From contig JAWLDB010000003.1 of NCBI GenBank assembly GCA_041686915.1, positions 1 to 57,155 of the forward strand: DNA of 57,155 bases, given 5' to 3'. The position numbers and the translations under genes are program-made. The notes below the pieces were generated by a model. That model was not told the origin of the DNA and did no database searches. It worked only from the letters and a program-made list of their open reading frames with translations. Source of the DNA: Bacillota bacterium (GTDB taxonomy: Bacteria > Bacillota > UBA994 > UBA5500). Shown here piece after piece: positions 15,348-55,626 of the stretch (position 1 is its first letter; each line of letters opens with the position of its first letter).

Positions 15348-16742
15348 TTAGTTGTCGTCTCCGGGTGTGGCGGGTATATCAGGCTCGATGCCCATGACAC
15401 CAATCTCCTCAGACCAAACTCTTACGGTCCCATCTATTTTGGCCACAAACTCAGTGTAGGTTAGGCCCCACCAACCAGGCGCGTATGCTACTACTTCACC
15501 CTTCTTCACCCGATCCCCCAGGTGCTTAAAGACAAAGCCTTGAATGTGCCCATCGATGATATCCACCCTGAGGAATTGCCAACCCCTGGCGATCCTGTCT
15601 TCGTAGACCGGGTGGCGCTTGTTCAACCCGGTGACTTGCTTGGATAGCAGCGGAATTGGCTGATCGAACAACAACTGGTTTACGGTTGCGCGCCGCGCCA
15701 GCGCAGCGGGCGCGGCTACAGCGGCAACGTACGCCAAGGTAGTGTAGATCAGCATGCGCGGCAGGTTTTGGATGGTCACCGGCAGGTTCACACCCCGCAT
15801 CATCAGCAATCTGCTGCTGGCGAAGGTGAGGCCAAGTCCGAATGCGACACCGCCTAAAGCGGTTATCATACCGGCTGCAGTGAACAGTCCCCATAGTTCG
15901 CGCGGCGTCAGACCAACACTTTTCAATACTGACAACTCGCGCTTGCTGTCCATGAACGAAAGCAGCAGTGCAGTTAGGACTCCTAAACCCAGGAAAGCAA
16001 ACACTAAGAGTAACACTCTACTCATGCTGCTGTAGGCATCATCAACGGAGTTCTGCGCATGAAGCAGGGGCCATTCCCGGTCAATCACCAAGCCTTCTGG
16101 ATAATAGCGCTTGAGGACGGCTCTGGCATCGGAAGGCCGCAATTCTTGCGGCAAGTTGTGCAAGAAGCGGTCATAGCCGGTCTGACCTAGTTCGCTGTTG
16201 ACCCAGCCAGCATCCATTACTGCTACGGCCGCATAGGGGCTGACAGAATAGCTGTCTGTGACAACAGCTTGCAGGCTATGATTGTATTCACCGAAAAACA
16301 CTGTCAGCTGTTGGCCAATCTGCAAGCCAAGTTGTTGCATCATGGCTTCTGGGACTATCAACTGGCCAGGCTCCGGCCGCGGACCACTGTATCCAGTCTG
16401 CGGAGCAATAGCCATTATTTCCATTTCTCCTAAAGGAGTAGAGGCATTTAATCTGCGGGCGGCTGCCACCAGTTCAGGAAAAGGACGTGAACGCCAAGCA
16501 CCACTCGGCTTCTCCAGGTCAGCTATCTGGCGCAGCTCTGGCAGGTCCAGGTAGATGTCACTCACCATTTCCAGCTTGTCTACCTGCTGGCTGAAGGCAT
16601 TACCAACTTGCTGCAAATAACTCTGATAGAGCAGAAAAGCTGTGCAGGTGAAAGCTGTCAATACCATTGCAGAAAGATGAATGCGCCAACCGTGCTTTAG
16701 GCGCTTTAGGGTCAACTGCCAGACATTCTGTAGTGACCTCAT
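15348..16742 (-). CDS. ABC transporter permease (FtsX/MacB-type) with an additional ~110-aa C-terminal domain
   Basis: TM1, a large extracytoplasmic loop, then three TMs (FtsX topology), followed by a soluble tail containing GDRVKKGEVVAY. ATGA overlap with the upstream ATPase gene. Confidence 0.75.
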   Translation of the reverse strand: MRSLQNVWQLTLKRLKHGWRIHLSAMVLTAFTCTAFLLYQSYLQQVGNAFSQQVDKLEMVSDIYLDLPELRQIADLEKPSGAWRSRPFPELVAAARRLNASTPLGEMEIMAIAPQTGYSGPRPEPGQLIVPEAMMQQLGLQIGQQLTVFFGEYNHSLQAVVTDSYSVSPYAAVAVMDAGWVNSELGQTGYDRFLHNLPQELRPSDARAVLKRYYPEGLVIDREWPLLHAQNSVDDAYSSMSRVLLLVFAFLGLGVLTALLLSFMDSKRELSVLKSVGLTPRELWGLFTAAGMITALGGVAFGLGLTFASSRLLMMRGVNLPVTIQNLPRMLIYTTLAYVAAVAAPAALARRATVNQLLFDQPIPLLSKQVTGLNKRHPVYEDRIARGWQFLRVDIIDGHIQGFVFKHLGDRVKKGEVVAYAPGWWGLTYTEFVAKIDGTVRVWSEEIGVMGIEPDIPATPGDDN

Positions 16743-17416
16743 GACGAAACCACTTCACCGTCTTTCATCGTTACCACGCAATCAGCGCTCTCCGCGAGGC
16801 TCGTATCATGGGTTACCATGATGAAGGTCTGCCCATCGACCCGGTTGAACTCCTGGAACAACTTGACGATCTCATCGCGAGTGCGGGTGTCCAGGTTGCC
16901 GGTCGGTTCATCGGCTAGCACGACGGCTGGCTTATTGGCCAATGCTCGGGCGATAGCAACACGCTGCTGCTCACCGCCAGACAGCTGCAAGGGCAAGTGA
17001 CTGCGCCGCTTGGATAATCCAACGCGCTCTAGCAGCAGCTCGCCACGCTTTAAAGCGTCCTTCTTGTTCATGCCTACAAACTGCATGGGTAGCATGACGT
17101 TTTCCAAGGCAGAAAGGTGGGGTATCAGGTTGAAAAACTGGAACACGTAGCCCAGTTTGTGCCGGCGTAGCAGAGCGAGCCTGTCTTCATTTAGATCTCG
17201 GTAAGACTTGCCTTCCAGGATGATGTCGCCGCTCATCGGTCGGTCCAGACCGCCAAGCAAGCTCAGCAGCGTACTCTTACCACTGCCTGATGCGCCTACA
17301 ATAATATTCATCGTGCCGCGTTTGAACTCGAGATTTACATTATTCACCGCGTAGATGGTCTCACCAAGGGAGAAAGCCTTATTAAGGTTGACTGTGCGCA
17401 GGATTACATCGTTCAT
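16739..17416 (-). CDS. ABC transporter ATP-binding protein (MacB/LolD-like)
   Basis: Walker A GASGSGKST, signature LSGGEQQR, Walker B VVLADEPT. ATG 17416 lies 8 nt after GGAGGTG and overlaps (ATGA) the upstream stop. Confidence 0.9.
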   Translation of the reverse strand: MNDVILRTVNLNKAFSLGETIYAVNNVNLEFKRGTMNIIVGASGSGKSTLLSLLGGLDRPMSGDIILEGKSYRDLNEDRLALLRRHKLGYVFQFFNLIPHLSALENVMLPMQFVGMNKKDALKRGELLLERVGLSKRRSHLPLQLSGGEQQRVAIARALANKPAVVLADEPTGNLDTRTRDEIVKLFQEFNRVDGQTFIMVTHDTSLAESADCVVTMKDGEVVSS

Positions 17417-18840
17417 GAACGGAGCACCTCCATAACTGTCAGTCTGGACATTTTCCATGCTGGGATGAGGCCGAAGATGAGGCCGACGATCAACGTAACT
17501 CCCATGACTAGGCCGTAATTGGAGATTAACTGGGCCAAGATTTCACTCCAAGCCTGTTGGTTGCTTATTTGCTGATGCAAAGCTGCTAAATATACTAGCA
17601 GGAAGCCAATGCTCGATCCGATGATGCTAAGCATCACTGACTCGCTAAGTGCCATCTGCATAATATCTAAGCGGCGTGCGCCCAAGGCCTTCAGCACTCC
17701 AATTTCTTTGCGTCGCTCAGCCATACCGGTTAGCATGCGAGCCGCCATCAGCAGCCCGGCATTAGCGTAGATCAGTATAGCGAGGATTTTGCTCATGTCC
17801 ATTGGTATGCCAGTCTGCAAGCTGCCATCCCGGCGCCAAAGCTGCTCGGGGGCTTGTTCAAAGTGGTCCAAAGCTGCCTGCCTGTCCGCTACCTTTTTCA
17901 AGTTTGGCGCCGAGACGAGTGTCCAGTTCGGCGCTCCCACTTGCAGTTCGCCAACCAAAGCTTCCAAGGTCGAGAGGTCTTTCACTCGCAGCCCATAGCT
18001 GAGGGCAGTTGGTTCTACGCTGTCGGCCGCCGCCTGCCATAATTGTCGCCAGGTTGCCTCCGTCAGCCACACCTCATCGATATCCAGGTAGGCTTGCTCA
18101 AACCTGTCGTTACCAGCCTCGTCGCGCCAAGCTATGTTACGAGTAGGCAAGGCATAGCCGCCTGCCACCCGCACAGTATGCTTGACACTGCGTGATGGGT
18201 CCAATTGAAGAGAACCGTCTGCCGCGAGTAGGATCCTTGGAACAGTGATATCCAGCGTCTGGGGGAGGGATGTGTTATTATCCCTAGCAGACTTCAGATT
18301 AAGCCATACCGCTAGCTCACCATCGAGCGTATCCGGCTGGCTATCGCCCTCGGCAATGTACTCCGACAAAGGGTCATTGGGCAACAAAGCGCGTAGAGCG
18401 ACTCCGTTGTTGATGCTTGGGGTGCCACCAATCCATCCAGGCATCCGGTAAACTGGATTGATTTCTATTACTTCCGGATGCTCCCGCAAGTACTCTATCT
18501 GTTCCGAGGGAAATGGTTCTAATTTGGGTGCATCTGTAGCTAGAAAACCTTCCTTGCTCAGGTGTGGATAGAATAAAGCAAGCGTGGAGAACTCATTCTC
18601 AGGCAAGCGGTAGAGCTGCAGATCACCCAGATCTGAGGGGGTACTGAGGAAACGGAGCGGGTATACCACTATCTCCCCGCTCATCCAGTGGCGATAATTG
18701 CTGTATGCCTGAGCTGGGTAACCTTGTTGGACAGTAAGACTGGTGGTCAGGGCAACAGCCGCAAGCACAAGGCTTATCAGCGCCAGGGTGCTGCGTCCAA
18801 GCTGCCTGATAACGTTGATTATTCCTAGACGTACAAACAC
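17413..18840 (-). CDS. ABC transporter permease (FtsX/MacB-type, large extracytoplasmic domain)
   Basis: N-terminal TM, a ~330-aa loop, then three C-terminal TMs. GTG 18840 lies 5 nt after AGGAGGG. Confidence 0.8.
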   Translation of the reverse strand: MFVRLGIINVIRQLGRSTLALISLVLAAVALTTSLTVQQGYPAQAYSNYRHWMSGEIVVYPLRFLSTPSDLGDLQLYRLPENEFSTLALFYPHLSKEGFLATDAPKLEPFPSEQIEYLREHPEVIEINPVYRMPGWIGGTPSINNGVALRALLPNDPLSEYIAEGDSQPDTLDGELAVWLNLKSARDNNTSLPQTLDITVPRILLAADGSLQLDPSRSVKHTVRVAGGYALPTRNIAWRDEAGNDRFEQAYLDIDEVWLTEATWRQLWQAAADSVEPTALSYGLRVKDLSTLEALVGELQVGAPNWTLVSAPNLKKVADRQAALDHFEQAPEQLWRRDGSLQTGIPMDMSKILAILIYANAGLLMAARMLTGMAERRKEIGVLKALGARRLDIMQMALSESVMLSIIGSSIGFLLVYLAALHQQISNQQAWSEILAQLISNYGLVMGVTLIVGLIFGLIPAWKMSRLTVMEVLRS

Positions 18841-19175
18841 GTTGACCCTCCTCGTTATGCAAAACAAGTGAAGCTACAAAAAGCGTATGCAGATATCTCT
18901 GCATGATAGTTGCATCACTGAATGGGTATTCGAAATACTAAGCTAACGAAAATATTATAACATAGCTGCTTGCCAGTCAGGGGAGAAGATTTTTGAGCTA
19001 ATTCAGCGCACTATCTACTAGGATAATAAAGCTAATGTGCGTATATTGGAGCATTTCAGGGGCTACTCGTGATGGAAGCGGGCAGATGAGGTAAAACTGG
19101 GCGTAATGGCATGGAAAGCTTGTAATCCTAGTTTTACCTGGGGCTTGGTCGCGTGCTAGACTTAATTAACAGGCC

Positions 19176-19300
19176 ATAATCGCCGAATTGTCCGCAGGGG
19201 CAAACGGGGGAAACAACTTTTGGGGTGAAGCCTGCTTGCAGGCGGGGGACTCGGCCCCCAACCCGTCAGCTAACCTCGTAGGCGTTCCGGGAAGGCAGGT
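19176..19300 (+). promoter_or_regulatory. Cyclic-di-AMP riboswitch (ydaO-yuaA class) aptamer
   Basis: Conserved blocks in canonical order: CGCCGAAUU (19181), ACGGGGGAAAC (19204-19214), GGGGUGAAGCC (19222-19232), hairpin GCCUGC-uu-GCAGGC (19230-19243), GGGGGACUC (19244-19252), AACCCGUCAGCUAACCUCGUAGGCGUU (19260-19286). P1 pairs CGCC with GGCG. Confidence 0.85.
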
Positions 19301-19373
19301 GCTTCTTCAGCATGCCCCACCCATGCAATCGGGTTTTCCCATGCCTGTTCATAGCTATCCGGTCTGCCGGAAT

Positions 19374-19637
19374 ATGATGTTGATTGGGGGTTTCATTCGC
19401 GTGTGCTGTGAAGCAATATTCAAGGACAATAACGTACGCAAACAGATTGAGCATCTGCGCGACAACCAGGTTGGAGTCATACTCAGCGACTCCAACGGCA
19501 ACAAGTGCAAGTTTGGCTTGGTAGCTACCTTCTACCCTACCAACGACAAGCGGGAAGTGATCCTGCGTTGTCAAGAGTGCGGTAAACGGTGGATGGTTGT
19601 GTTGGACCGGGGAGATTTCCGGGTCGCCGAGGCCTAG
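19374..19637 (+). CDS. Small hypothetical protein (about 78-87 aa) with CC...CxxC cysteines
   Basis: First open frame after the riboswitch. Start uncertain: ATG 19374 has no SD, while GTG 19401 lies 10 nt after GGGGG. Ends RCQECGKRWMVVLDRGDFRVAEA. No family recognised. Confidence 0.45.
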   Translation: MMLIGGFIRVCCEAIFKDNNVRKQIEHLRDNQVGVILSDSNGNKCKFGLVATFYPTNDKREVILRCQECGKRWMVVLDRGDFRVAEA

Positions 19638-19727
19638 ATGAGTATGCTTGGACAATTTTAAGGCATGTCCAGCCTACCTGGCTGAATATGATGTAACAAA
19701 AGCCAAGGTACAAGGAGGCCCATGCTC

Positions 19728-19973
19728 ATGAAAAGCCAGGCATTCGTGGAACAGGTGAACCTGCACGAAGTTGTAGTCAGGATTAACGGTAAGACGTATT
19801 CGCTCCCGCGTTGCTGCTTGCCAACCGAAGTGCAAGAAGAAGATGTCATAGATTTGGTGGTTTTTGTCAATGAGAAGGCCACACAACGCCATCTCGACCA
19901 AATCCGGCGCTGGCTACGTCTATGCGGCGCATACGCCGGTTTCCGCAAAGCGGAAGAGGAAGCCAGAGTGTAA
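19728..19973 (+). CDS. Small hypothetical protein, DUF3006-like
   Basis: ATG 19728 lies 9 nt after AAGGAGG. The pattern VEQVNLHEVVVRINGKTYSLPRCCLPTEVQEEDVIDL resembles DUF3006 (family recalled from memory). Confidence 0.5.
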   Translation: MKSQAFVEQVNLHEVVVRINGKTYSLPRCCLPTEVQEEDVIDLVVFVNEKATQRHLDQIRRWLRLCGAYAGFRKAEEEARV

Positions 19974-19980
19974 CGAACAC

Positions 19981-20013
19981 AAAAGCTCGGCCAAGAATGT
20001 GCCGAGCTTTTTT
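19981..20013. terminator. Bidirectional terminator hairpin
   Basis: AAAAGCTCGGC-caagaatgt-GCCGAGCTTTT. Between convergent genes. Confidence 0.85.
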
Positions 20014-20020
20014 GTGTGGT

Positions 20021-21676
20021 TTAGTAGCCGAGGCAGCTGCCATCGCCGCGGGGATCGCTGGCGCCCTGTCTCACTCCGGTAACAGGATCGATACGTATCA
20101 GCTGTACAGTGCCGCCGCCGCTCCACGGACCTACCAGTGTGATCTCGTGGCCAAGTTGTTGCAGTTGTTGTCGGATTGCTGGCGAAAAGCGATCTTCCAT
20201 GCGCAGCGTAACCGGTTGATTCATGGATGCCGGATCAGTTCCAGGAGCGCTGGTCCAGCGGGGGGCAGTAACTGCCTCAGAAACCGACATATCAAAGTCA
20301 ATGCAGTTGACGATAGTTTGCATATTCCATTGGGGCTGGCCATCACCTCCGGGAGTGTTGCCCACTAGGTACGGTTTGCCTTGTCTGTTGACCAGATAGG
20401 TGTTTAGCGTATGCATCGTCTTCTTGCCAGGAGCCAAGCAGTTGGGGTGCTGCGGGTCGAGCACAAAACCACGGCCAGCCCGGTTATTGAGCAGTATGCC
20501 CGTGTCCGGGATGGTAACCCCGGAGCCAAAGGCAAGCGAGAGGCTATGGATGAAGGAGACGGCATTGCCTGCTGAGTCAACAACGACAAAGGACGTAGTA
20601 TCACCGTCAGGATCTCCTGCAGTCACATGATTATTGGCACAATGCAAGTCAATATCCTGACGGCGTCTGGCAGTGTATTCCGGCGACAATAGCTTCTGCA
20701 GTGGCATCTTCACGAAATTGGGGTCTCCGGCATAGGCCAACCGGTCGGCATAAGCCAGCTTTTTAGCTTCGACCATCAGGTGGACTGCATCAGCGCTCTC
20801 CGGACCCATTTCTGCTAGATTAAAGCCATTTAAGATAGCGAGCTCTTCCAGCATGATTAGACCTTGAGAAGGGGGAGAAGTTTGATAGACTTCGTAACCT
20901 CGATAATTCACCTTGATAGGGGTGTAGATCTCGGTTGTATGTTCTGTTAGCTCCCGCTCAGTAATCAAGCCACCAGTTTGACGCATATGCTCAATCATTT
21001 TGCTGGCGAGGGAACCTTTGTAGAAGGCATCAGCGCCTTCTTGGGCAAAGGTGCGTAAAGACCTGGCATAGTCAGGCTGTCTGAAGATCTCGCCAGCCTG
21101 GTAGGGAGTACCGTCCTCTTTCAAAAATGTCTTGGCTGTAGCGGGGAAGCGGGCGAGCTTGGCAGCATTGGAACGAAAATGCCCAGCCAGGATTTCGGAA
21201 ACAGGGAAGCCGTGCTCAGCATAGTTGATGGCAGGCTGCATCACCTGCTCCAGGGTCATGCTACCCCAGTGCTTGATGGCTGTATCAAACGCATGGGCTG
21301 AGCCGGGAATCGCCACCGACAGAGGGCCGTCCAGCGGCATCTTGTCACTGTATCCTTGAGCTGAGTAGTGCTCCAGCGTTGCTCCGTAGGGCGCAATGCC
21401 ACTGCCGTTAACTGCCTCGACCTTTCCGGTCCTGGCGTCGTAGACGATCATAAAGGTGTCACCACCGAGGCCGCACATCGAAGGCAGCACTACGCAGGTT
21501 ACGCCGGCAATGGCGATGGCTGCATCAATGGCGTTGCCGCCTTGTTTGAGGATCTCTAGTCCCGCGGCGGTTGCCAGGGGGTGCGCTGTGGCTACCATGC
21601 CTCCTTGGGACATTGCTACGCCGCGCAGTTTGCCGGGAGCTGAAGCCCAAAGGTTGTTATCCGGTTGCTTGCTCAT
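20021..21676 (-). CDS. ggt: Gamma-glutamyltransferase
   Basis: 551 aa. Autoprocessing/nucleophile site GDTTSFVVVD and the GGDGQ block near the C-terminus. GAGGAGG SD. Confidence 0.9.
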   Translation of the reverse strand: MSKQPDNNLWASAPGKLRGVAMSQGGMVATAHPLATAAGLEILKQGGNAIDAAIAIAGVTCVVLPSMCGLGGDTFMIVYDARTGKVEAVNGSGIAPYGATLEHYSAQGYSDKMPLDGPLSVAIPGSAHAFDTAIKHWGSMTLEQVMQPAINYAEHGFPVSEILAGHFRSNAAKLARFPATAKTFLKEDGTPYQAGEIFRQPDYARSLRTFAQEGADAFYKGSLASKMIEHMRQTGGLITERELTEHTTEIYTPIKVNYRGYEVYQTSPPSQGLIMLEELAILNGFNLAEMGPESADAVHLMVEAKKLAYADRLAYAGDPNFVKMPLQKLLSPEYTARRRQDIDLHCANNHVTAGDPDGDTTSFVVVDSAGNAVSFIHSLSLAFGSGVTIPDTGILLNNRAGRGFVLDPQHPNCLAPGKKTMHTLNTYLVNRQGKPYLVGNTPGGDGQPQWNMQTIVNCIDFDMSVSEAVTAPRWTSAPGTDPASMNQPVTLRMEDRFSPAIRQQLQQLGHEITLVGPWSGGGTVQLIRIDPVTGVRQGASDPRGDGSCLGY

Positions 21677-21801: not shown

Positions 21802-22707
21802 TTATTCTCTAGGAAGCTTACCATCTTCCCGCATAATCTCCATGAAAGCATCTACCACCTCGGGTGAAAACTGTGCCCCGCGTTGGCGGATTATCTCCTC
21901 TATAGCCTGCTGCTCCGTGAGCGCTTTCCGGTAAGGGCGGTCGCTGGTCATGGCGTCATAGGCGTCTGCCACCGCAATGATCTTCGCTTCAATGCTGATT
22001 TCGCGACCTTCCAGTCCCAAAGGGTAACCTTTGCCATCTTCACGCTCGTGGTGTTGTTCGATTATGTACCCGACCTCGGAGATAAATGTATCTTGTAGTA
22101 TCTGACGCCCCTCGGTAGGATGCCTTCGTATGAGCTCCCATTCCTCTTCAGATAACTTAGTAGGCTTCGTTAGAACTTCCTCAGGGATTGCTGTCTTGCC
22201 TAGATCATGAAGGTAAGCTGCGTCAACGAGCCGAACCATTTGGCCACCTGAGAGGCGTAGCTTCTCACCAATCCTGGTAGAAAGCCTTTCGATTCTTTTG
22301 CAGTGTTCCTCAGTATACATGTCCTTGACTTCAATGTCCCTTGCCAGATCAAGCCATTGCTTGATATTTTCACTAACAAACCCAAAGACCGGGGGAGATG
22401 CGACATACATGAAAGTAACGTCTGTAACAGTTCTGAAGTATGCAGTCTGAACCAGATTAGTCGCCACAATGTAGTCACCCTTACTTAGCGTGACTTCTTT
22501 TCCGTTGTCATCCCAGATGAGGGTGCCATCAGTTATAAACGCAAACTCAAAGCCTTGCCATGGTGTTAGTGAAAACGGTTTGGCTGCCTTAACGGTCTGC
22601 AGCATTACTTCTACCTCGCCCGCTCTAGCAAGGAGTTTTATGGCTGTGGTCTTCTTAGCCACACTCTCCAAGCATGCCCCGTCTTGCTCTACCCGCAGAC
22701 CCTTCAC
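21802..22707 (-). CDS. HD-GYP domain c-di-GMP phosphodiesterase with an N-terminal cupin-like domain
   Basis: HDLGK and HHEREDGKGYP motifs. GTG 22707 lies 5 nt after GAAGGTG and avoids overlap with the upstream ORF (the track start 22749 is TTG). Confidence 0.85.
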   Translation of the reverse strand: MKGLRVEQDGACLESVAKKTTAIKLLARAGEVEVMLQTVKAAKPFSLTPWQGFEFAFITDGTLIWDDNGKEVTLSKGDYIVATNLVQTAYFRTVTDVTFMYVASPPVFGFVSENIKQWLDLARDIEVKDMYTEEHCKRIERLSTRIGEKLRLSGGQMVRLVDAAYLHDLGKTAIPEEVLTKPTKLSEEEWELIRRHPTEGRQILQDTFISEVGYIIEQHHEREDGKGYPLGLEGREISIEAKIIAVADAYDAMTSDRPYRKALTEQQAIEEIIRQRGAQFSPEVVDAFMEIMREDGKLPRE

Positions 22708-22726
22708 TTCAGCACCTTCTCTCAGA

Positions 22727-23125
22727 CTAGTCAGCGTTGCCGGAAACAATAATGGGATCGATCAAAACAGTGTACCACCCAATCTGCACTTCTTCATAAA
22801 CACAGATCAGCTTGACGCCCTCTTCTTTTGCAGCATCCATAACATTATCGATGAGTTTCTCCTCTACATCTTTCAATACATCGATAATCTTCGCATAGGC
22901 ATCGTCAGCCTGATCCTTTGTGATGAATCCAGCATCATAAGCTTTCGTCACTATCTCAGACGCGGCCACGGCTGTCTCTATGGCGACTTCAATCGCTTCA
23001 TTAGTCCAGTCTACCAAGGCTATGAGCTCTTCTGATGCCTGTACCGTGCTGTCTGCGAACGCGGGTGTTGCTCCCAAAACCAATGCCAGCAGCATACATA
23101 GCACTGCTATCCTACGTTTTAGCAT
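22727..23125 (-). CDS. Secreted hypothetical protein
   Basis: Signal peptide MLKRRIAVLCMLLALVLGATPAFA. ATG 23125 follows GGAGGGG. Acidic helical mature part. Confidence 0.65.
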   Translation of the reverse strand: MLKRRIAVLCMLLALVLGATPAFADSTVQASEELIALVDWTNEAIEVAIETAVAASEIVTKAYDAGFITKDQADDAYAKIIDVLKDVEEKLIDNVMDAAKEEGVKLICVYEEVQIGWYTVLIDPIIVSGNAD

Positions 23126-33630: not shown

Positions 33631-34380
33631 ATGAGAGTAATGTTCGATGTTGGACATGGCGGAGGAGATAGTGGCGCTGTAGGCAATGGCTTGGTGGAAA
33701 AGGAGCTCAATCTGTATACTGCCAGGCGAGCGCAAGATCTACTGAGAGCGAAAGCCCGCGCTGCCGGCATATCAATGCAGGTGGCACTTAGTCGCGAATC
33801 AGATGTCTCCTTGTCGAGGTCTGCACGCCTGCGGCGGATCGCCAGCTTCAACCCGCATATCTGTATCTCCATTCACTATAACTCTGCGAGCACCAATTTA
33901 GCCCGTGGGACAGAAGTGTACCACTCTGCTAATAATCACCGCGATGACGCATTAGCCAAGTTTATGATAGAGCGATTGGCAGCAACTGGCATGCCTTCCC
34001 GAGGGACTAAGACGCGCATATTGCGGAGTGGAGCCGACTACTACTATATAATACGGGACGTAATGGATGAGGATACAGTCGCTGTGCTCTACGAGGGAGC
34101 CTTCGTCAGCAGCCCCGAAGATGCCGATATGATCAAATCAGGCTGGATGGATCAGGCGGCTGAGGCTATTGCGCAAGCAGTAATGCAATTCATCGCTGAA
34201 GGCAAATGGCCCGAAGAGCCACGCGAGGTCGAAGGTCCGCGCTTGCTAATCGAGGGCTATGAGCTTCCACTGCAGATCATCGACGGCAGGTCATACGCAC
34301 CCGTGCGTCAGCTGCTGGAGTCGCTTGGCTATACTGTCACCTGGGATGGCGAGACCGATACAGTAACTGCACATAAATAG
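33631..34380 (+). CDS. N-acetylmuramoyl-L-alanine amidase (Amidase_3) with a C-terminal copper-amine-oxidase-N-like stalk domain
   Basis: FDVGHGGGDSGAVG, ISIHYNS and YEGAFVSS blocks. C-terminal DGRSYAPVRQLLESLGYTVTWD. Confidence 0.85.
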   Translation: MRVMFDVGHGGGDSGAVGNGLVEKELNLYTARRAQDLLRAKARAAGISMQVALSRESDVSLSRSARLRRIASFNPHICISIHYNSASTNLARGTEVYHSANNHRDDALAKFMIERLAATGMPSRGTKTRILRSGADYYYIIRDVMDEDTVAVLYEGAFVSSPEDADMIKSGWMDQAAEAIAQAVMQFIAEGKWPEEPREVEGPRLLIEGYELPLQIIDGRSYAPVRQLLESLGYTVTWDGETDTVTAHK

Positions 34381-46359: not shown

Positions 46360-47703
46360 TTGGCTACAGAAACCAAGAAGATTTTGGTCGTGGACGATAA
46401 CAGACTGACGTTAAACATCCTGCGCAAGAGCCTGCAGGAAGCAGGCTATCAAGTTGTGAGTGCCACTAGTGGACTGGATGCTCTCAAGCAGGTTGAGAAG
46501 GAAGTTATTCATCTCATTTTGCTTGATGTTGTTATGCCCGATATGGACGGTTACGAAGTCATCCGGCAGTTACGCAATAATACCCGTACCAGCCATATCC
46601 CGATTATCCTGGTTAGTTCACGAGCCAGCTTGGCTGATAAGGTGCAAGGCTTTGAAGCGGGAGCAGACGATTATATTACCAAGCCTTTTGAGCTGCTTGA
46701 GCTCTTGGCCAGAGTGATGGCTCATATGCGCAGTGCGCGCCGAGCCCGTTCGATTAGTCCGCTTACTGGTTTGCCGGGGAATATCCGCATTGAAGACGAG
46801 TTAAAAGAGCGTGTGGAGAGTGGTGAGAAGTTCGCCGTTCTCTATGTTGATATGGACAACTTTAAGGCCTACAACGATGCCTACGGTTTTTTGCAGGGAG
46901 ACGAAGCCATTAAGCTGTTAGCCCGTACGATGGAGGACGTTGCCAGGCAATTTGGTCACAGCGATGACCTGATAGGCCACATCGGTGGAGACGATTTCGT
47001 CGTAGTAACCAGGCCTGAGGTAGTCGATGCTGTTTGCGGTGAAGTCATCACCAGGTTCGACCGCGCGATTAAGTTGATGTATGACCCGGAAGACAGAGAA
47101 CGCAACGGCGTCCTCGTTCTCGACCGCGCAGGCAGGGAAGTCCGCTATCCCGTCATTTCGCTGTCAATCGGTGTTATCAGCAACGAACACCGTGTTATCA
47201 ACAGTCATTGGGAAGTTGGGGAGATTGCGGCTGGAATAAAACACAAAGCCAAGAGTTTGCCTGGCAGTGTGTATGTGAAAGATGAACGACCACCTATAGG
47301 TAGCGTCGTTAACGGTTCTGGTTGTCGTGTGCTGGTGGTCGAAGACGATCGGCTGATTAGTGCATTGCTGCGTGGCAATCTTGAACACTGCGGATATGAG
47401 GTGGACGTTGCTGGTAGTGCCATGGCTGCTCTACAGTCGATCAAGGAACGGGTACCCGATTTGCTGGTTCTGGATGTAGTCCTACCTGGTACCTCAGGAT
47501 ACATGCTCTGCCGCAAACTAAAAGGCGACCCGCATACCAGCCAAGTCGCAGTTCTTATGGTCAGTTCCAGCGGAAATCCTGAGACCGCTGCGGAGGCAGG
47601 GGCAGACGCTTTCTTGGCCAAGCCCTTTGATATTAGAAAGCTATTGCAGGTTGTCTATGACCTTTTGCGGGAGCAAAAGCAAAAATCTGCCAACAATAAC
47701 TGA
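46360..47703 (+). CDS. Response regulator, REC-GGDEF-REC architecture (GGDDF variant)
   Basis: N-terminal REC (VVDDN...LLDVVMPDMDG...KPF). GGDEF domain (LTGLPGN, VDMDNFKAYNDAYGFLQGD, HIGGDDFVV). Second REC (VVEDD...LDVVLPGTSG...KPF). TTG start 9 nt after GGAGG. Confidence 0.85.
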   Translation: MATETKKILVVDDNRLTLNILRKSLQEAGYQVVSATSGLDALKQVEKEVIHLILLDVVMPDMDGYEVIRQLRNNTRTSHIPIILVSSRASLADKVQGFEAGADDYITKPFELLELLARVMAHMRSARRARSISPLTGLPGNIRIEDELKERVESGEKFAVLYVDMDNFKAYNDAYGFLQGDEAIKLLARTMEDVARQFGHSDDLIGHIGGDDFVVVTRPEVVDAVCGEVITRFDRAIKLMYDPEDRERNGVLVLDRAGREVRYPVISLSIGVISNEHRVINSHWEVGEIAAGIKHKAKSLPGSVYVKDERPPIGSVVNGSGCRVLVVEDDRLISALLRGNLEHCGYEVDVAGSAMAALQSIKERVPDLLVLDVVLPGTSGYMLCRKLKGDPHTSQVAVLMVSSSGNPETAAEAGADAFLAKPFDIRKLLQVVYDLLREQKQKSANNN

Positions 47704-52267: not shown

Positions 52268-52282
52268 AGGAGGGTGGTCTGC

Positions 52283-53707
52283 ATGTCCAAACAGGAACAG
52301 CAGATGCTGTTGCGCAGGCTGCCTGCCGTCGACACAGTGCTACGCATGAGCGAGACTGATCGGATAATTGCACAGTACGGTAGCACTCAGGTGACACAGC
52401 AACTGCGCCAGCTGACGGATGATTGGAGAAAGCAAATCTTGTCAGGAGAGCTAAACGGTACAGCTTTCGACGCACAACTAGCTGCGCTCCATCAGCAGCT
52501 GACACAGCGCCTGTTGCGTGCTAACCGTTCTAGCTTGCGTCCGGTAATCAATGCTACCGGCATCATCATCCATACCAACTTAGGCCGTTCGCTGCTACCT
52601 GATGTCGCTCGCGAACAGATTAATGCAGTCGCCAGTGCCTACTCTACTTTGGAAGTGGACGTGGAAACTGGTGATCGCGGCTCGCGCTACTCGCATGTAG
52701 TGGATCTGCTGACAGAGTTGACCGGCGCAGAAGATGCCATCGTAGTCAATAACAATGCTGGGGCAGTGCTGCTGGTGCTAGGCGCGCTAGCCCAAGGACA
52801 GCAAGTAATCGTCTCGAGAGGGCAGCTGGTGGAAATCGGCGGTTCATTCCGCATTCCGGAAGTGATGGAGCAGAGCGGCTGTCAATTGGTAGAGGTGGGA
52901 GCCACAAATAAGACACATTTGTTTGACTATGAGCGTGCCATCCGGCCTGAGACTGCTGCCCTGCTGAAAGTGCACACCAGCAATTACCGCATGGTGGGTT
53001 TCACTCAGGAAGTGTCGAGTGAGGATATGGTCAAACTAGCCCATGAGCGAGGCTTGCTAGCTCTCGAGGATTTGGGTAGCGGAGTGCTGATCAACCTTGA
53101 GAAGCTCGGGCACATTCATGAGCCGACAGTGCAGGAAGCACTGCAGGCAGGGATGGACATCGTTACGTTCAGCGGAGATAAACTCTTGGGCGGCCCGCAA
53201 GCAGGGGTTATTGTCGGAAAGGCTGACCTGATTAGGCGCATCCGCAAGCACCCGCTCACCAGAGCGCTTCGCATAGATAAGCTTACACTGGCAGGCTTGG
53301 AGGCTACACTGCGCCTGTATAGAGATGAAGCGAACGCAGTGCACCAAATCCCTACACTACGCATGCTCGCTGCAACGGCGGAAGAACTGATGTGTAAAGC
53401 CAGGCAGCTGCAGACGGAGTTAGCGGAACTGATTGGTGACCTGGCAAAGGTTGATGCGGTGGACAGCGTGGCCCAAGTGGGCGGAGGATCACTCCCTGGT
53501 TATGAGTTTCCCAGCGCAGCCGTAGCCATAGTGCCGAAAGAGATGAGTGCCAATAGTCTTGAGGCAGCGTTACGGTTGGGTAATGCCGCGGTATTTAGCC
53601 GTATCTACCGGGAACAAGTACTGCTCGACGTTCGTACCTTGCAACCCGGCGAGGACACGATTGTGCGCGATGCAGTTGTCGCTGCGTTACAGGGGGTAGG
53701 GGTATGA
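52283..53707 (+). CDS. selA: L-seryl-tRNA(Sec) selenium transferase
   Basis: 474 aa. N-terminus LLRRLPAVDTVL and PLP-lysine block FSGDKLLGGPQAG. ATG 52283 follows GGAGGG. Confidence 0.9.
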   Translation: MSKQEQQMLLRRLPAVDTVLRMSETDRIIAQYGSTQVTQQLRQLTDDWRKQILSGELNGTAFDAQLAALHQQLTQRLLRANRSSLRPVINATGIIIHTNLGRSLLPDVAREQINAVASAYSTLEVDVETGDRGSRYSHVVDLLTELTGAEDAIVVNNNAGAVLLVLGALAQGQQVIVSRGQLVEIGGSFRIPEVMEQSGCQLVEVGATNKTHLFDYERAIRPETAALLKVHTSNYRMVGFTQEVSSEDMVKLAHERGLLALEDLGSGVLINLEKLGHIHEPTVQEALQAGMDIVTFSGDKLLGGPQAGVIVGKADLIRRIRKHPLTRALRIDKLTLAGLEATLRLYRDEANAVHQIPTLRMLAATAEELMCKARQLQTELAELIGDLAKVDAVDSVAQVGGGSLPGYEFPSAAVAIVPKEMSANSLEAALRLGNAAVFSRIYREQVLLDVRTLQPGEDTIVRDAVVAALQGVGV

Positions 53708-55626
53708 AACACGTGATCGTTGGTACTGCCGGTCATATAGACCATGGTAAGACAACGCTGGTTAAGGCCTTGACCGGCATAGATACGGACCGGTGGAAGG
53801 AAGAAAAAGAGCGGGGCATAACCATTGACTTGGGCTTTGCCTATTTTGACTTGCCAGGCGGACGCCGGGCGGGAATTGTTGATGTACCGGGTCACGAGAA
53901 ATTCATCAAGAACATGCTTGCAGGCGCGGGCGGGATAGATATTGTGGTGCTCGTGGTAGCAGCTGATGAAGGCATCATGCCGCAAACCCTTGAGCATCTG
54001 AACATACTGTCCTTGCTTGAGACCAAGCAGGGCATCGTCGCCCTGACCAAGGTAGATATGGTAGATCCTGACTGGCTGGAGCTGGTGATGGACGACGTGC
54101 ACGATCGCCTGCAGGGCACATTTTTGGAGGATGCACCCATAATCCCAGTCTCAGCCGTCACCCGTCAGGGATTAGACGACTTGGTTGCAGCTATTGATCA
54201 GCTGACCGAGGAAGTGCAAGCTAGGGACGAGCACTTGCCTTTTCGTTTGCCAATTGACCGGGTCTTCAGCATCACCGGTTTTGGCACGGTAGTCACAGGC
54301 ACCTTGCTTTCGGGAATTGTTAACGTGGGGGACAGGGCGGAGGTGCACCCAAGTAACCAGGAAACCCGTGTTCGCTCGGTGCAAGTGCATGGCAAGAAAG
54401 CAGATCAGGGCTTCGCCGGGCAACGTGTAGCAATGAATGTAACCGGCCTTGAAGTCAGCGACCTCAAGCGTGGCGATGTGTTGGTCTCGCCTGGGTTGAT
54501 TAGCCCGACACTGATGCTGGATGTCCGATTGCAGCTTTTGAAAGATACAGATAAGCCTCTGGAAAACAGGGAGCGCCTAAGGTTATATACCGGTACCAGT
54601 GAGGTATTCTGCCGGGCAGTGCTGTTGGACGCTGAACTGTTGATGCCTGGTGAGACTGCTTTGGTGCAGCTCAGGTTGGAAGAACCGGTAGCGGTACTTT
54701 CTGGCGACCGGTTTGTTGTCCGTACCTATTCCCCAATGTTTACTATTGGGGGGGGCACCATTCTGGACGCGCACCCTAAGAAACGTAAGCGGTTTAAGCA
54801 AGAAGGGCTCGACGAACTGATGCGGCGAGAAAGCGGGGGAGACATCGAGATCCTCAATCAGACACTGCTGCAGCATAGTGACGAATTCCCCGCAGAAGAC
54901 GAGCTCTTCCGCCTGGCTGGACGGCCAGCTGAGGATTTGGCTGAGGCGCTTGAACAACTGCAGGCGGATGATCTGGCAGTCGCTTTGACGGTAGATGGCA
55001 AACCTACGTATATACATGCTGACTATCTGCAGAAGCTGGGAGAACGAGCGCAGAAAGCTCTAAACGATTTTCACGGCCGCTACCCACTGCGTCCTGGCAT
55101 GCCCAAGGAAGAGTTGCGTAGCCGGGTCTTCCGCAACGCATCCAGTAAGCTCTTTAACAGCCTTCTCACCTTGCTGAGTGGGGAAGGTAAGCTGGTAGTA
55201 AAGGGTGGTGTGATCACTGCCCCCGCTTTTCAGGTTGAGTTCAAGGGACAAAGCGCTGTTCTGCGTGGCAAGCTACTGGATGCGCTAACGTCCAATCAGT
55301 TCAGCCCTCCCGACCTGAGTGAATTGTCTGATCTACTGCGCGAGAGCCCAGACCGGTTGAGCGAACTGGTGAATGCCTTAGATAACTTGGGCGAAGTAGT
55401 GAAGGTGAGTGGCGAAATCACCCTCGCTACTGAGGCTTACCTGGCAGCCAAAGAGAAGGTGGTTGCAACCATCCGTGAGAAGGGTAGCCTGGCTTTGGCT
55501 GACCTGCGTGATGCGTTGCAGACCAGTCGCAAGTACGCCCTGCCCATTCTGGAGTATCTCGATGCACAGAAGGTTACCGTACGCAAGGGCGACGTCAGGG
55601 TACTGCACTCCCAGTACTCGGAATAA
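53704..55626 (+). CDS. selB: Selenocysteine-specific translation elongation factor
   Basis: GTPase motifs [18 protein letters not shown] and TKVD, plus long C-terminal winged-helix SECIS-binding domains. ATGA overlap with selA. Confidence 0.9.

Follow-up and report, generated by a model that had tools for sequence, protein, structure and literature searches.

A ydaO-type aptamer and its transcription unit

The stretch analysed here (the window) comprises 57,155 nucleotides of contig JAWLDB010000003.1 from a Bacillota bacterium, and carries on its forward (+) strand an aptamer of the cyclic di-AMP (c-di-AMP) riboswitch class known as ydaO, followed by two small open reading frames designated ORF1 and ORF2. 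As read from the sequence signals, aptamer and genes appear to form a short transcription unit, extending from a promoter at ~19133-19162 to a terminator at 19977-20017. Its principal features are as follows:

19133-19162 (+): promoter-like site read from the sequence, with a -35 box TTTACC (19133-38), an 18-nt spacer and an extended -10 box TGCTAGACT (19154-62)
19171-19299 (+): aptamer of the c-di-AMP (ydaO/yuaA) riboswitch, RF00379, detected by cmscan against Rfam 15
19250-19254 (+): 5' strand of the pseudoknot, CUCGG, in the terminal loop of the GGGGG/CCCCC hairpin and complementary to 19287-91
19287-19291 (+): 3' strand of the pseudoknot, CCGGG, which opens the conserved G-rich tail CCGGGAAGGCAGG and is complementary to 19250-54
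19386-19390 (+): Shine-Dalgarno sequence of ORF1, GGGGG within UUGGGGGU, conserved in six of six leaders
19401-19637 (+): ORF1, 78 amino acids (aa), beginning MCCE, with its start set by comparison of five lineages
19712-19973 (+): ORF2, 81 aa, a divergent DUF3006 gene (PF11213), with the Shine-Dalgarno sequence AAGGAGG at 19712-18 and coding sequence at 19728-19973
19977-20017 (bidirectional): intrinsic terminator, a stem of -22.6 kcal/mol with a U-run, ending both the ORF1-ORF2 unit and the convergent gamma-glutamyltranspeptidase gene

A preliminary description of this DNA had assigned positions 19176-19300 to the ydaO class. This is the same element as the RF00379 match at 19171-19299, which was scored at 86.7 bits when the whole window was scanned (E = 6.6e-19; gathering score 38). 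A score under the gathering threshold had been named in the preliminary description as grounds for refuting the assignment; the score obtained exceeds this threshold by a wide margin. The match spans model positions 1-134 of 134 and is untruncated, with zero non-canonical pairs flagged. No other RF00379 match was returned from the 57 kb by the Rfam 15 scan, the second and last Rfam match in the window being a lysine riboswitch at 1110-1299. As only a single aptamer is present, the NlpC/P60 (24988-25467), Amidase_3 (33631-34380) and ABC/FtsX (15348-18867) genes of the window have none, as the preliminary description had also stated.

Six leaders, representing five ORF1-bearing lineages, were compared (homologous loci are denoted by L numbers). 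The homologous aptamers scored 79-86 bits in L001-L005, 71 bits in L006-L008 and 69 bits in L009, and truncated copies reached 53 bits in L010 and 41 bits in L011. Between lineages the aptamer DNA is ~78% identical, although the synonymous sites of the adjoining genes are saturated. Among the 34 predicted pairs of the aptamer helices, five show two-sided changes that preserve pairing and almost none is broken (five sequences). Complementarity of 4-6 bp between the loop and the tail was found in all six leaders; in L011 both strands are altered, CUCGAA pairing with UUUCGGG. The tail itself is kept as YGGG(R)AGGC in all lineages. The complementarity of loop and tail argues with moderate strength, the sample being small, for the long-range pseudoknot that is characteristic of the class.

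The aptamer is sense-oriented within a 5' leader, with a promoter upstream and a gene downstream. Its 5' end lies 9 nt from the end of TGCTAGACT, and the predicted transcript start is at about A19168/A19169; the -10 block GTGCTAGACT is invariant in the alignment of four lineages. ORF1 begins 102 nt downstream of the aptamer.

ORF1 as the putative riboswitch target

In all 11 of the ORF1 loci for which upstream DNA is present (five lineages), ORF1 is preceded by the aptamer. Nine further loci from seven lineages (L013, L014/L015, L016/L017, L018/L019, L020 and L021) have ORF2 only in the same slot, and their intergenic regions are too short to accommodate ORF1. Searches of these loci with tblastn and blastn gave no trace of ORF1 or the aptamer in any of the nine, and in the Rfam scan, which left out L015, RF00379 was absent at the gathering score in six and absent at E <= 0.01 in L020 and L021. 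With regard to remnants of either element, none was seen in L013-L019 and L021, and a scar was seen in L020 only (2889-2917), consisting of the last codons of ORF1 and the spacer and identical in 25 of 28 nt to L009 1068-1095. This scar of the 3' end of ORF1 implies that aptamer and gene were deleted together there. As the aptamer tracks ORF1 in five lineages and both are missing in seven, the riboswitch and ORF1 behave as one unit. The comparison points to ORF1 as the specific target of the riboswitch, and ORF2 would at most be co-regulated by read-through. The contigs that encode relatives of ORF1 or ORF2 have in common with the window divergent FtsX-ABC-FtsX genes upstream and convergent gamma-glutamyltranspeptidase and/or cupin-HD_5 genes downstream, and then continue with ArsR, GAF and NlpC/P60 genes.

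The start of ORF1 is most likely GTG 19401 and not the ATG at 19377 chosen by the gene caller, as in every lineage a Shine-Dalgarno sequence and then GTG, TTG or ATG directly precede an invariant Cys-Cys. The Shine-Dalgarno sequence reads GGGGGU(G) or GGAGGUG and is situated 7-10 nt upstream of the start codon in six of six leaders. Two earlier starts, ATG 19377 (gene call P0001, 86 aa) and ATG 19374, were rejected; both are unconserved, and L001 has a 1-nt indel that disrupts the frame. Between lineages, the proportion of non-synonymous differences (pN) is 0.06-0.25 in ORF1 and 0.07-0.34 in ORF2, against saturated synonymous differences (pS) of 0.69-0.95 for each; ORF1 is thus under coding selection, and by this substitution pattern both are real protein-coding genes. 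ORF1 was left uncalled by the gene callers in L001, L002 and L004, and protein databases therefore under-count its family.

ORF1 is a cytoplasmic protein with five invariant cysteines (Cys2, 3, 36, 57 and 60), among which are the pairs Cys2/Cys3 and Cys57-x2-Cys60; zinc-ribbon matches were sub-threshold only. It is probably a small metal-binding protein. Its AlphaFold model (predicted local distance difference test, pLDDT, 84.9) shows a five-stranded sheet and two short helices, and Foldseek returned no PDB fold match to it at E < 0.1. No Pfam, NCBIfam or PDB-sequence match to ORF1 rose above noise, and searches of PDB chain sequences together with Foldseek gave no match at E < 0.01 for ORF1 or ORF2.

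Relatives of ORF1 are very few. A search of 5.8 billion sequences yielded three other clusters, and a profile search of 1.84 billion representatives added one further distant relative, P0007, in which the N-terminal CxC and a CxxC are kept. No genuine relative was found among the GTDB species representatives, and scans of JGI metagenomes with ORF1 peptide patterns and with a DNA pattern of the aptamer tail were both empty. A match in Acetobacterium malicum (L012) was discarded, being an unrelated 106-aa protein that shares only CQECGKRW and has no riboswitch nearby.

The usual regulon of the class consists of K+ and amino-acid transporters, osmoprotection genes and cell-wall remodelling enzymes (PMC7266159, PMC3766115), an association that is typical of the class without defining it. 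ORF1, which has no family, and the DUF3006-like ORF2 do not belong to this set. The preliminary description had noted that only tiny ORFs of unrecognised function follow the aptamer and had called the target atypical; the sizes of 78 and 81 aa bear out the former, and the position of ORF1 outside the K+/osmolyte transport and cell-wall regulon bears out the latter.

Proposed control of translation and its alternatives

The segment between the aptamer and ORF1 contains four further features:

19289-19322 (+): tail hairpin competing with the pseudoknot, GGG..GGCA..UGCU/AGCA UGCC..CCC, about -11 to -12.5 kcal/mol by stepwise folding
19310-19326 (+): hairpin GCAUG-CCCCACC-CAUGC, read from the sequence, an alternative fold of the C-rich strand
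19319-19339 (+): degenerate terminator-like hairpin, ACCC (19319-22)/GGGU (19331-34), then UUUUCC, -4.9 kcal/mol
19342-19348 (+): conserved UGCCUGU motif, shared by the window, L006 and L009; L001 has UGCCUUU instead

No clean intrinsic terminator had been seen here in the preliminary description. A consensus promoter/terminator scan of the + strand from 18500 to 21500 returned no terminator-like site, and the best candidate, the degenerate hairpin, folds at only -4.9 kcal/mol. The terminator is thus indeed absent; its absence is not odd, as terminator-less members are documented (PMC9960051, PMC11963983). The hairpin GCATG-ccccacc-CATGC, which had been pointed out at 19310-19326, does occur in the sequence and lies outside the minimum-energy folds. 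The degenerate hairpin aligns with the position of a true terminator in L001 (9573-9603, with the same segment in L005), CCCCGUU-UUCUAU-AGCGGGG followed by U6, which folds at -11.9 kcal/mol. The UGCCUGU motif is complementary to the conserved 5' end of the transcript, ACAGGC (19169-74); a long-range helix between the two was considered and set aside, since it appeared in no constrained minimum-energy fold and displayed no clean covariation.

The 3' strand of the tail hairpin (19308-19322) is the proposed strand opposing the ribosome-binding site (RBS), or anti-RBS. A local hairpin that uses the GGG of the pseudoknot was obtained by stepwise folding in all five lineages, at -10 to -15 kcal/mol, with equivalents of the tail hairpin forming in L001, L006, L009 and L011. 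In all five, the C-rich strand is complementary to the Shine-Dalgarno sequence of ORF1 (duplex of -13 to -18 kcal/mol), and in the window, L001 and L011 to the start codon as well. Compared with genomic k-mers, the anti-RBS strand falls within the best 0.2-5.8%, depending on the lineage. In L009, blocking the pseudoknot strand lowered the unpaired probability of the Shine-Dalgarno sequence from 0.39 to 0.00.

From these complementarities we infer an exchange of strands. Without ligand, the G-rich tail CCGGGAAGGCAGGUGCU (from 19287) would pair with the C-rich strand AGCAUGCCCCACCC (19308-19322), leaving the Shine-Dalgarno sequence (19386-90) and the GTG (19401) accessible. When two c-di-AMP molecules are bound, the CCGGG of the tail would be pulled into the pseudoknot with the loop CUCGG (19250-54), which would weaken the tail hairpin and release the C-rich strand; the latter would then pair with the Shine-Dalgarno sequence and start codon so that ribosomes could not load, and the untranslated leader RNA may subsequently be lost to Rho or decay. 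OFF logic is to be expected here because it is known for this riboswitch class (PMC9960051, PMC6488665). The proposal of the preliminary description that control may be exerted at translation fits the hairpin competing with the pseudoknot and its RBS-complementary 3' strand, found in five lineages. The most likely role of the riboswitch is that of an OFF switch on translation initiation of ORF1, and on balance we favour, by a modest degree of confidence, the view that the element as a whole is a functional class-I c-di-AMP (ydaO-type) riboswitch acting on ORF1 in this manner.

Several observations weigh against translational control by strand exchange. Equilibrium models of the expression platform barely differ between the ligand-free and ligand-bound states, and the shuffle control was not significant in the window. 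The Shine-Dalgarno sequence is mostly paired in both states, with unpaired probabilities of 0.19 vs 0.18 in the window and a clear switch in L009 only, and any ligand dependence must therefore be kinetic, or the model is incomplete. In the window, dinucleotide shuffles of the RBS or of the anti-RBS strand reached the observed duplex energy in 213 of 500 and 264 of 500 cases; the excess over shuffles is only weak in the other lineages, and enrichment is seen only with the genomic k-mer null. As shuffles pair about equally well, the complementarity of anti-RBS and RBS is largely a matter of a C-run facing a G-run, and any strand that pairs with the Shine-Dalgarno-like tail is automatically an anti-Shine-Dalgarno strand. 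Moreover, the inner part of the tail hairpin, GGCA..UGCC, has no overlap with the pseudoknot and would persist once ligand is bound. True covariation is absent from the switching helices, the comparison being limited to five lineages in which the G-run does not vary. Finally, the 57-kb window showed no gene for a diadenylate cyclase.

One possible alternative is transcription attenuation, in which the freed C-rich strand would form the ACCC/GGGU hairpin followed by UUUUCC and RNA polymerase would stop, perhaps assisted by NusA/NusG. At the homologous position, the L001/L005 terminator has a 7-bp stem and a U6 tract (-11.9 kcal/mol), and its 5' strand takes up part of the C-run, which in the alternative fold pairs with the GGG of the pseudoknot; members from Bacillus (ydaO/kimA, kdp) act by termination (PMC6488665, PMC9960051). 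The stem in the window, however, has 4 bp and an 8-nt loop at -4.9 kcal/mol, its U-tract is interrupted (UUUU then CC), the terminator scan of the + strand was empty, and L006, L009 and L011 are without any U-tract. Because of these three lineages, termination cannot be the shared mechanism of the group, and translational control is the sole option common to all five. We therefore consider attenuation unlikely as the explanation for the window; judging from the alignment, termination appears to be a lineage-specific addition. An additional scenario, to which we assign the same low likelihood, is that the riboswitch acts primarily through Rho-dependent termination or faster decay within the leader, whether or not ribosome binding is affected as well. 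C residues are abundant and G residues scarce in the segment 19300-19359 (18 C vs 9 G per 50 nt), which would be untranslated, within a leader of ~100 nt, when the ribosome site is occluded; yet this C-rich zone is short and mostly contained within predicted helices, and for a terminator-less Streptomyces member, Rho-independent regulation was reported (cited in PMC9960051).

Direct occlusion, as in Thermoanaerobacter, is a still less probable scenario, in which the Shine-Dalgarno-like GGGAAGG (19289-95) would serve a GTG at 19299 and be hidden by the pseudoknot. The order of pseudoknot strand, Shine-Dalgarno-like run and GUG matches that of the T. pseudethanolicus riboCdA (PMC11963983), the frame 19299-19637 is open for 112 codons and in frame with ORF1 in the window, and L001/L005 and L011 likewise have a GUG after the tail. 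Only 3 nt separate the run from GUG 19299, however, and the corresponding GUG in L001/L005 and L011 opens an upstream ORF of just 8-9 codons; L006 and L009 lack such a GUG, a 1-nt indel shifts the frames of the window and L001 relative to each other upstream of MCCE, and the Shine-Dalgarno sequence and start codon at MCCE are conserved in all lineages. That the aptamer is an evolutionary relic devoid of a regulatory role is very improbable: equilibrium folding does show no clean expression platform, and several related lineages no longer have the riboswitch-ORF1 unit, but the score clears the threshold by far without a single broken pair, aptamer, tail, -10 box and Shine-Dalgarno sequence are kept across lineages in which synonymous sites are saturated, and the aptamer was lost together with ORF1, as is expected of a working unit.

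ORF2, neighbouring genes and known c-di-AMP riboswitches

The PF11213 model matched all five of the ORF2 homologues tested against it (best E = 4e-6), which makes a distant relationship of ORF2 to DUF3006 likely, the window ORF2 itself scoring 20.0-20.1 bits and thus falling below the cut-off of 32.3. With DUF3006 it shares a size of ~80 aa and a beta-barrel followed by a helix; it differs in that its 20 bits remain under the 32.3-bit cut-off of the family. The ORF2 model consists of a small beta-barrel and a long helix (pLDDT 74.5). Foldseek gave no significant structural neighbour for it; weak similarities to HypC, RsgI-N and S1-like proteins were not significant. Related ORF2 clusters numbered 22. 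No mention of DUF3006 was found in the literature searched, and we know of no function assigned to this family. One 84-aa homologue of ORF2, P0011 (L009 1175-1429), is named 'tRNA U55 pseudouridine synthase TruB' by JGI, an evident mis-annotation.

A candidate control site precedes ORF2:

19684-19688 (+): GAATA box upstream of ORF2, candidate promoter or operator, invariant in nine lineages

The box is also invariant in lineages without ORF1 or the aptamer, including L013, L014, L016, L018 and L020. A CTTGTCC-like motif lies ~30 nt upstream of it in all lineages (in the window CATGTCC, at about 19664-19670). As the spacing is unfit for sigma-70, the GAATA/TGTCC pair may represent another type of promoter or an operator, and ORF2 probably has a promoter or control of its own, for which this is the candidate site.

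The window has a G+C content of ~52% and encodes ferredoxin oxidoreductases, a tungsten-type aldehyde oxidoreductase, SelA/SelB and PrsW. One relative of ORF2 bears the label of a Firmicutes MAG. From this gene content and label, the host appears to be an uncultured anaerobic member of the Bacillota. The Amidase_3 protein carries a copper-amine-oxidase-like domain. The gamma-glutamyltranspeptidase gene (20021-21676, -) is situated between ORF2 and cupin-HD_5 in the window, L009, L013, L014 and L016/L017 and is absent in L001-L008, a presence/absence polymorphism within conserved synteny. Other cyclic-dinucleotide genes nearby are cupin-HD_5 itself (HD-GYP-like; 21802-22749, -), which is transcribed towards the operon, and a GGDEF-domain response regulator (46360-47703, +). 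The lysine riboswitch (RF00168; 1110-1299, +) scored 85.2 bits (gathering score 30) and lies upstream of a gene of the Na+/H+-antiporter family (NhaC-type; 1401-2816, +), a common setting for lysine riboswitches. Genes for the selenocysteine machinery, SelA and SelB, are located at 52274-55626 (+), and ARAGORN found no tRNA gene in the whole window.

Riboswitch-controlled genes have often revealed hidden parts of a signal's physiology. We entertain, as a conjecture with a rather low chance of being right, the idea that riboswitch and ORF1 are a self-contained cassette gained and lost as a unit, in which ORF1 is an unrecognised small metal- or thiol-binding effector of c-di-AMP. Such a protein might act together with the adjoining DUF3006 protein or on the divergent FtsX-ABC-FtsX transporter. 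If this is true, the c-di-AMP regulon would gain a new functional branch in addition to ion and osmolyte transport and wall hydrolases. With ORF1, a specific gene can be put forward as a candidate for a new function under c-di-AMP control in anaerobic Bacillota. The orthologous riboswitches, which precede the same gene with or without a real terminator, furthermore offer a natural set for the study of how expression platforms interconvert. The advance is incremental, since both the RNA class and terminator-less operation were already known; what deserves attention is that the riboswitch has as its dedicated target a small cysteine-rich protein, very rare and uncharacterised, and that the orthologues differ in their terminator.

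With the Bacillus subtilis ydaO/kimA and B. thuringiensis kdpFABC riboswitches the element shares the aptamer consensus, the helices, the pseudoknot and the position in a 5' leader. The Bacillus members possess a canonical intrinsic terminator and K+ transporter targets, whereas the window has no usable terminator and a 78-aa target without a family. A further known member is riboCdA of Thermoanaerobacter pseudethanolicus/T. tengcongensis (PMC11963983), in which a regulatory pseudoknot joins the terminal loop of the 3' half to the 3' tail and represses translation. Both are terminator-less, in both the 3'-tail pseudoknot would be the regulatory element, and the translational OFF response of riboCdA is the one that we infer here. 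They differ in that the Shine-Dalgarno sequence of riboCdA sits inside the pseudoknot strand and is hidden directly, while in the window it is found ~95 nt downstream, and the C-rich strand would relay the signal.

The nlpC riboswitch of Corynebacterium glutamicum likewise has no canonical terminator; its control was inferred to be translational, and only the first gene of its operon is affected (PMC9960051), a first-gene-only effect which parallels the place of ORF1 as the putative specific target in the window. The rpfA riboswitch of Streptomyces coelicolor is also terminator-less, with translational control inferred (cited in PMC9960051). These two differ from the present element in having cell-wall hydrolase targets, which belong to the classical regulon, and Actinobacteria as hosts, in contrast to the anaerobic Bacillota of the window. 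Terminator-less c-di-AMP riboswitches are thus already documented, and what is new here is the target.

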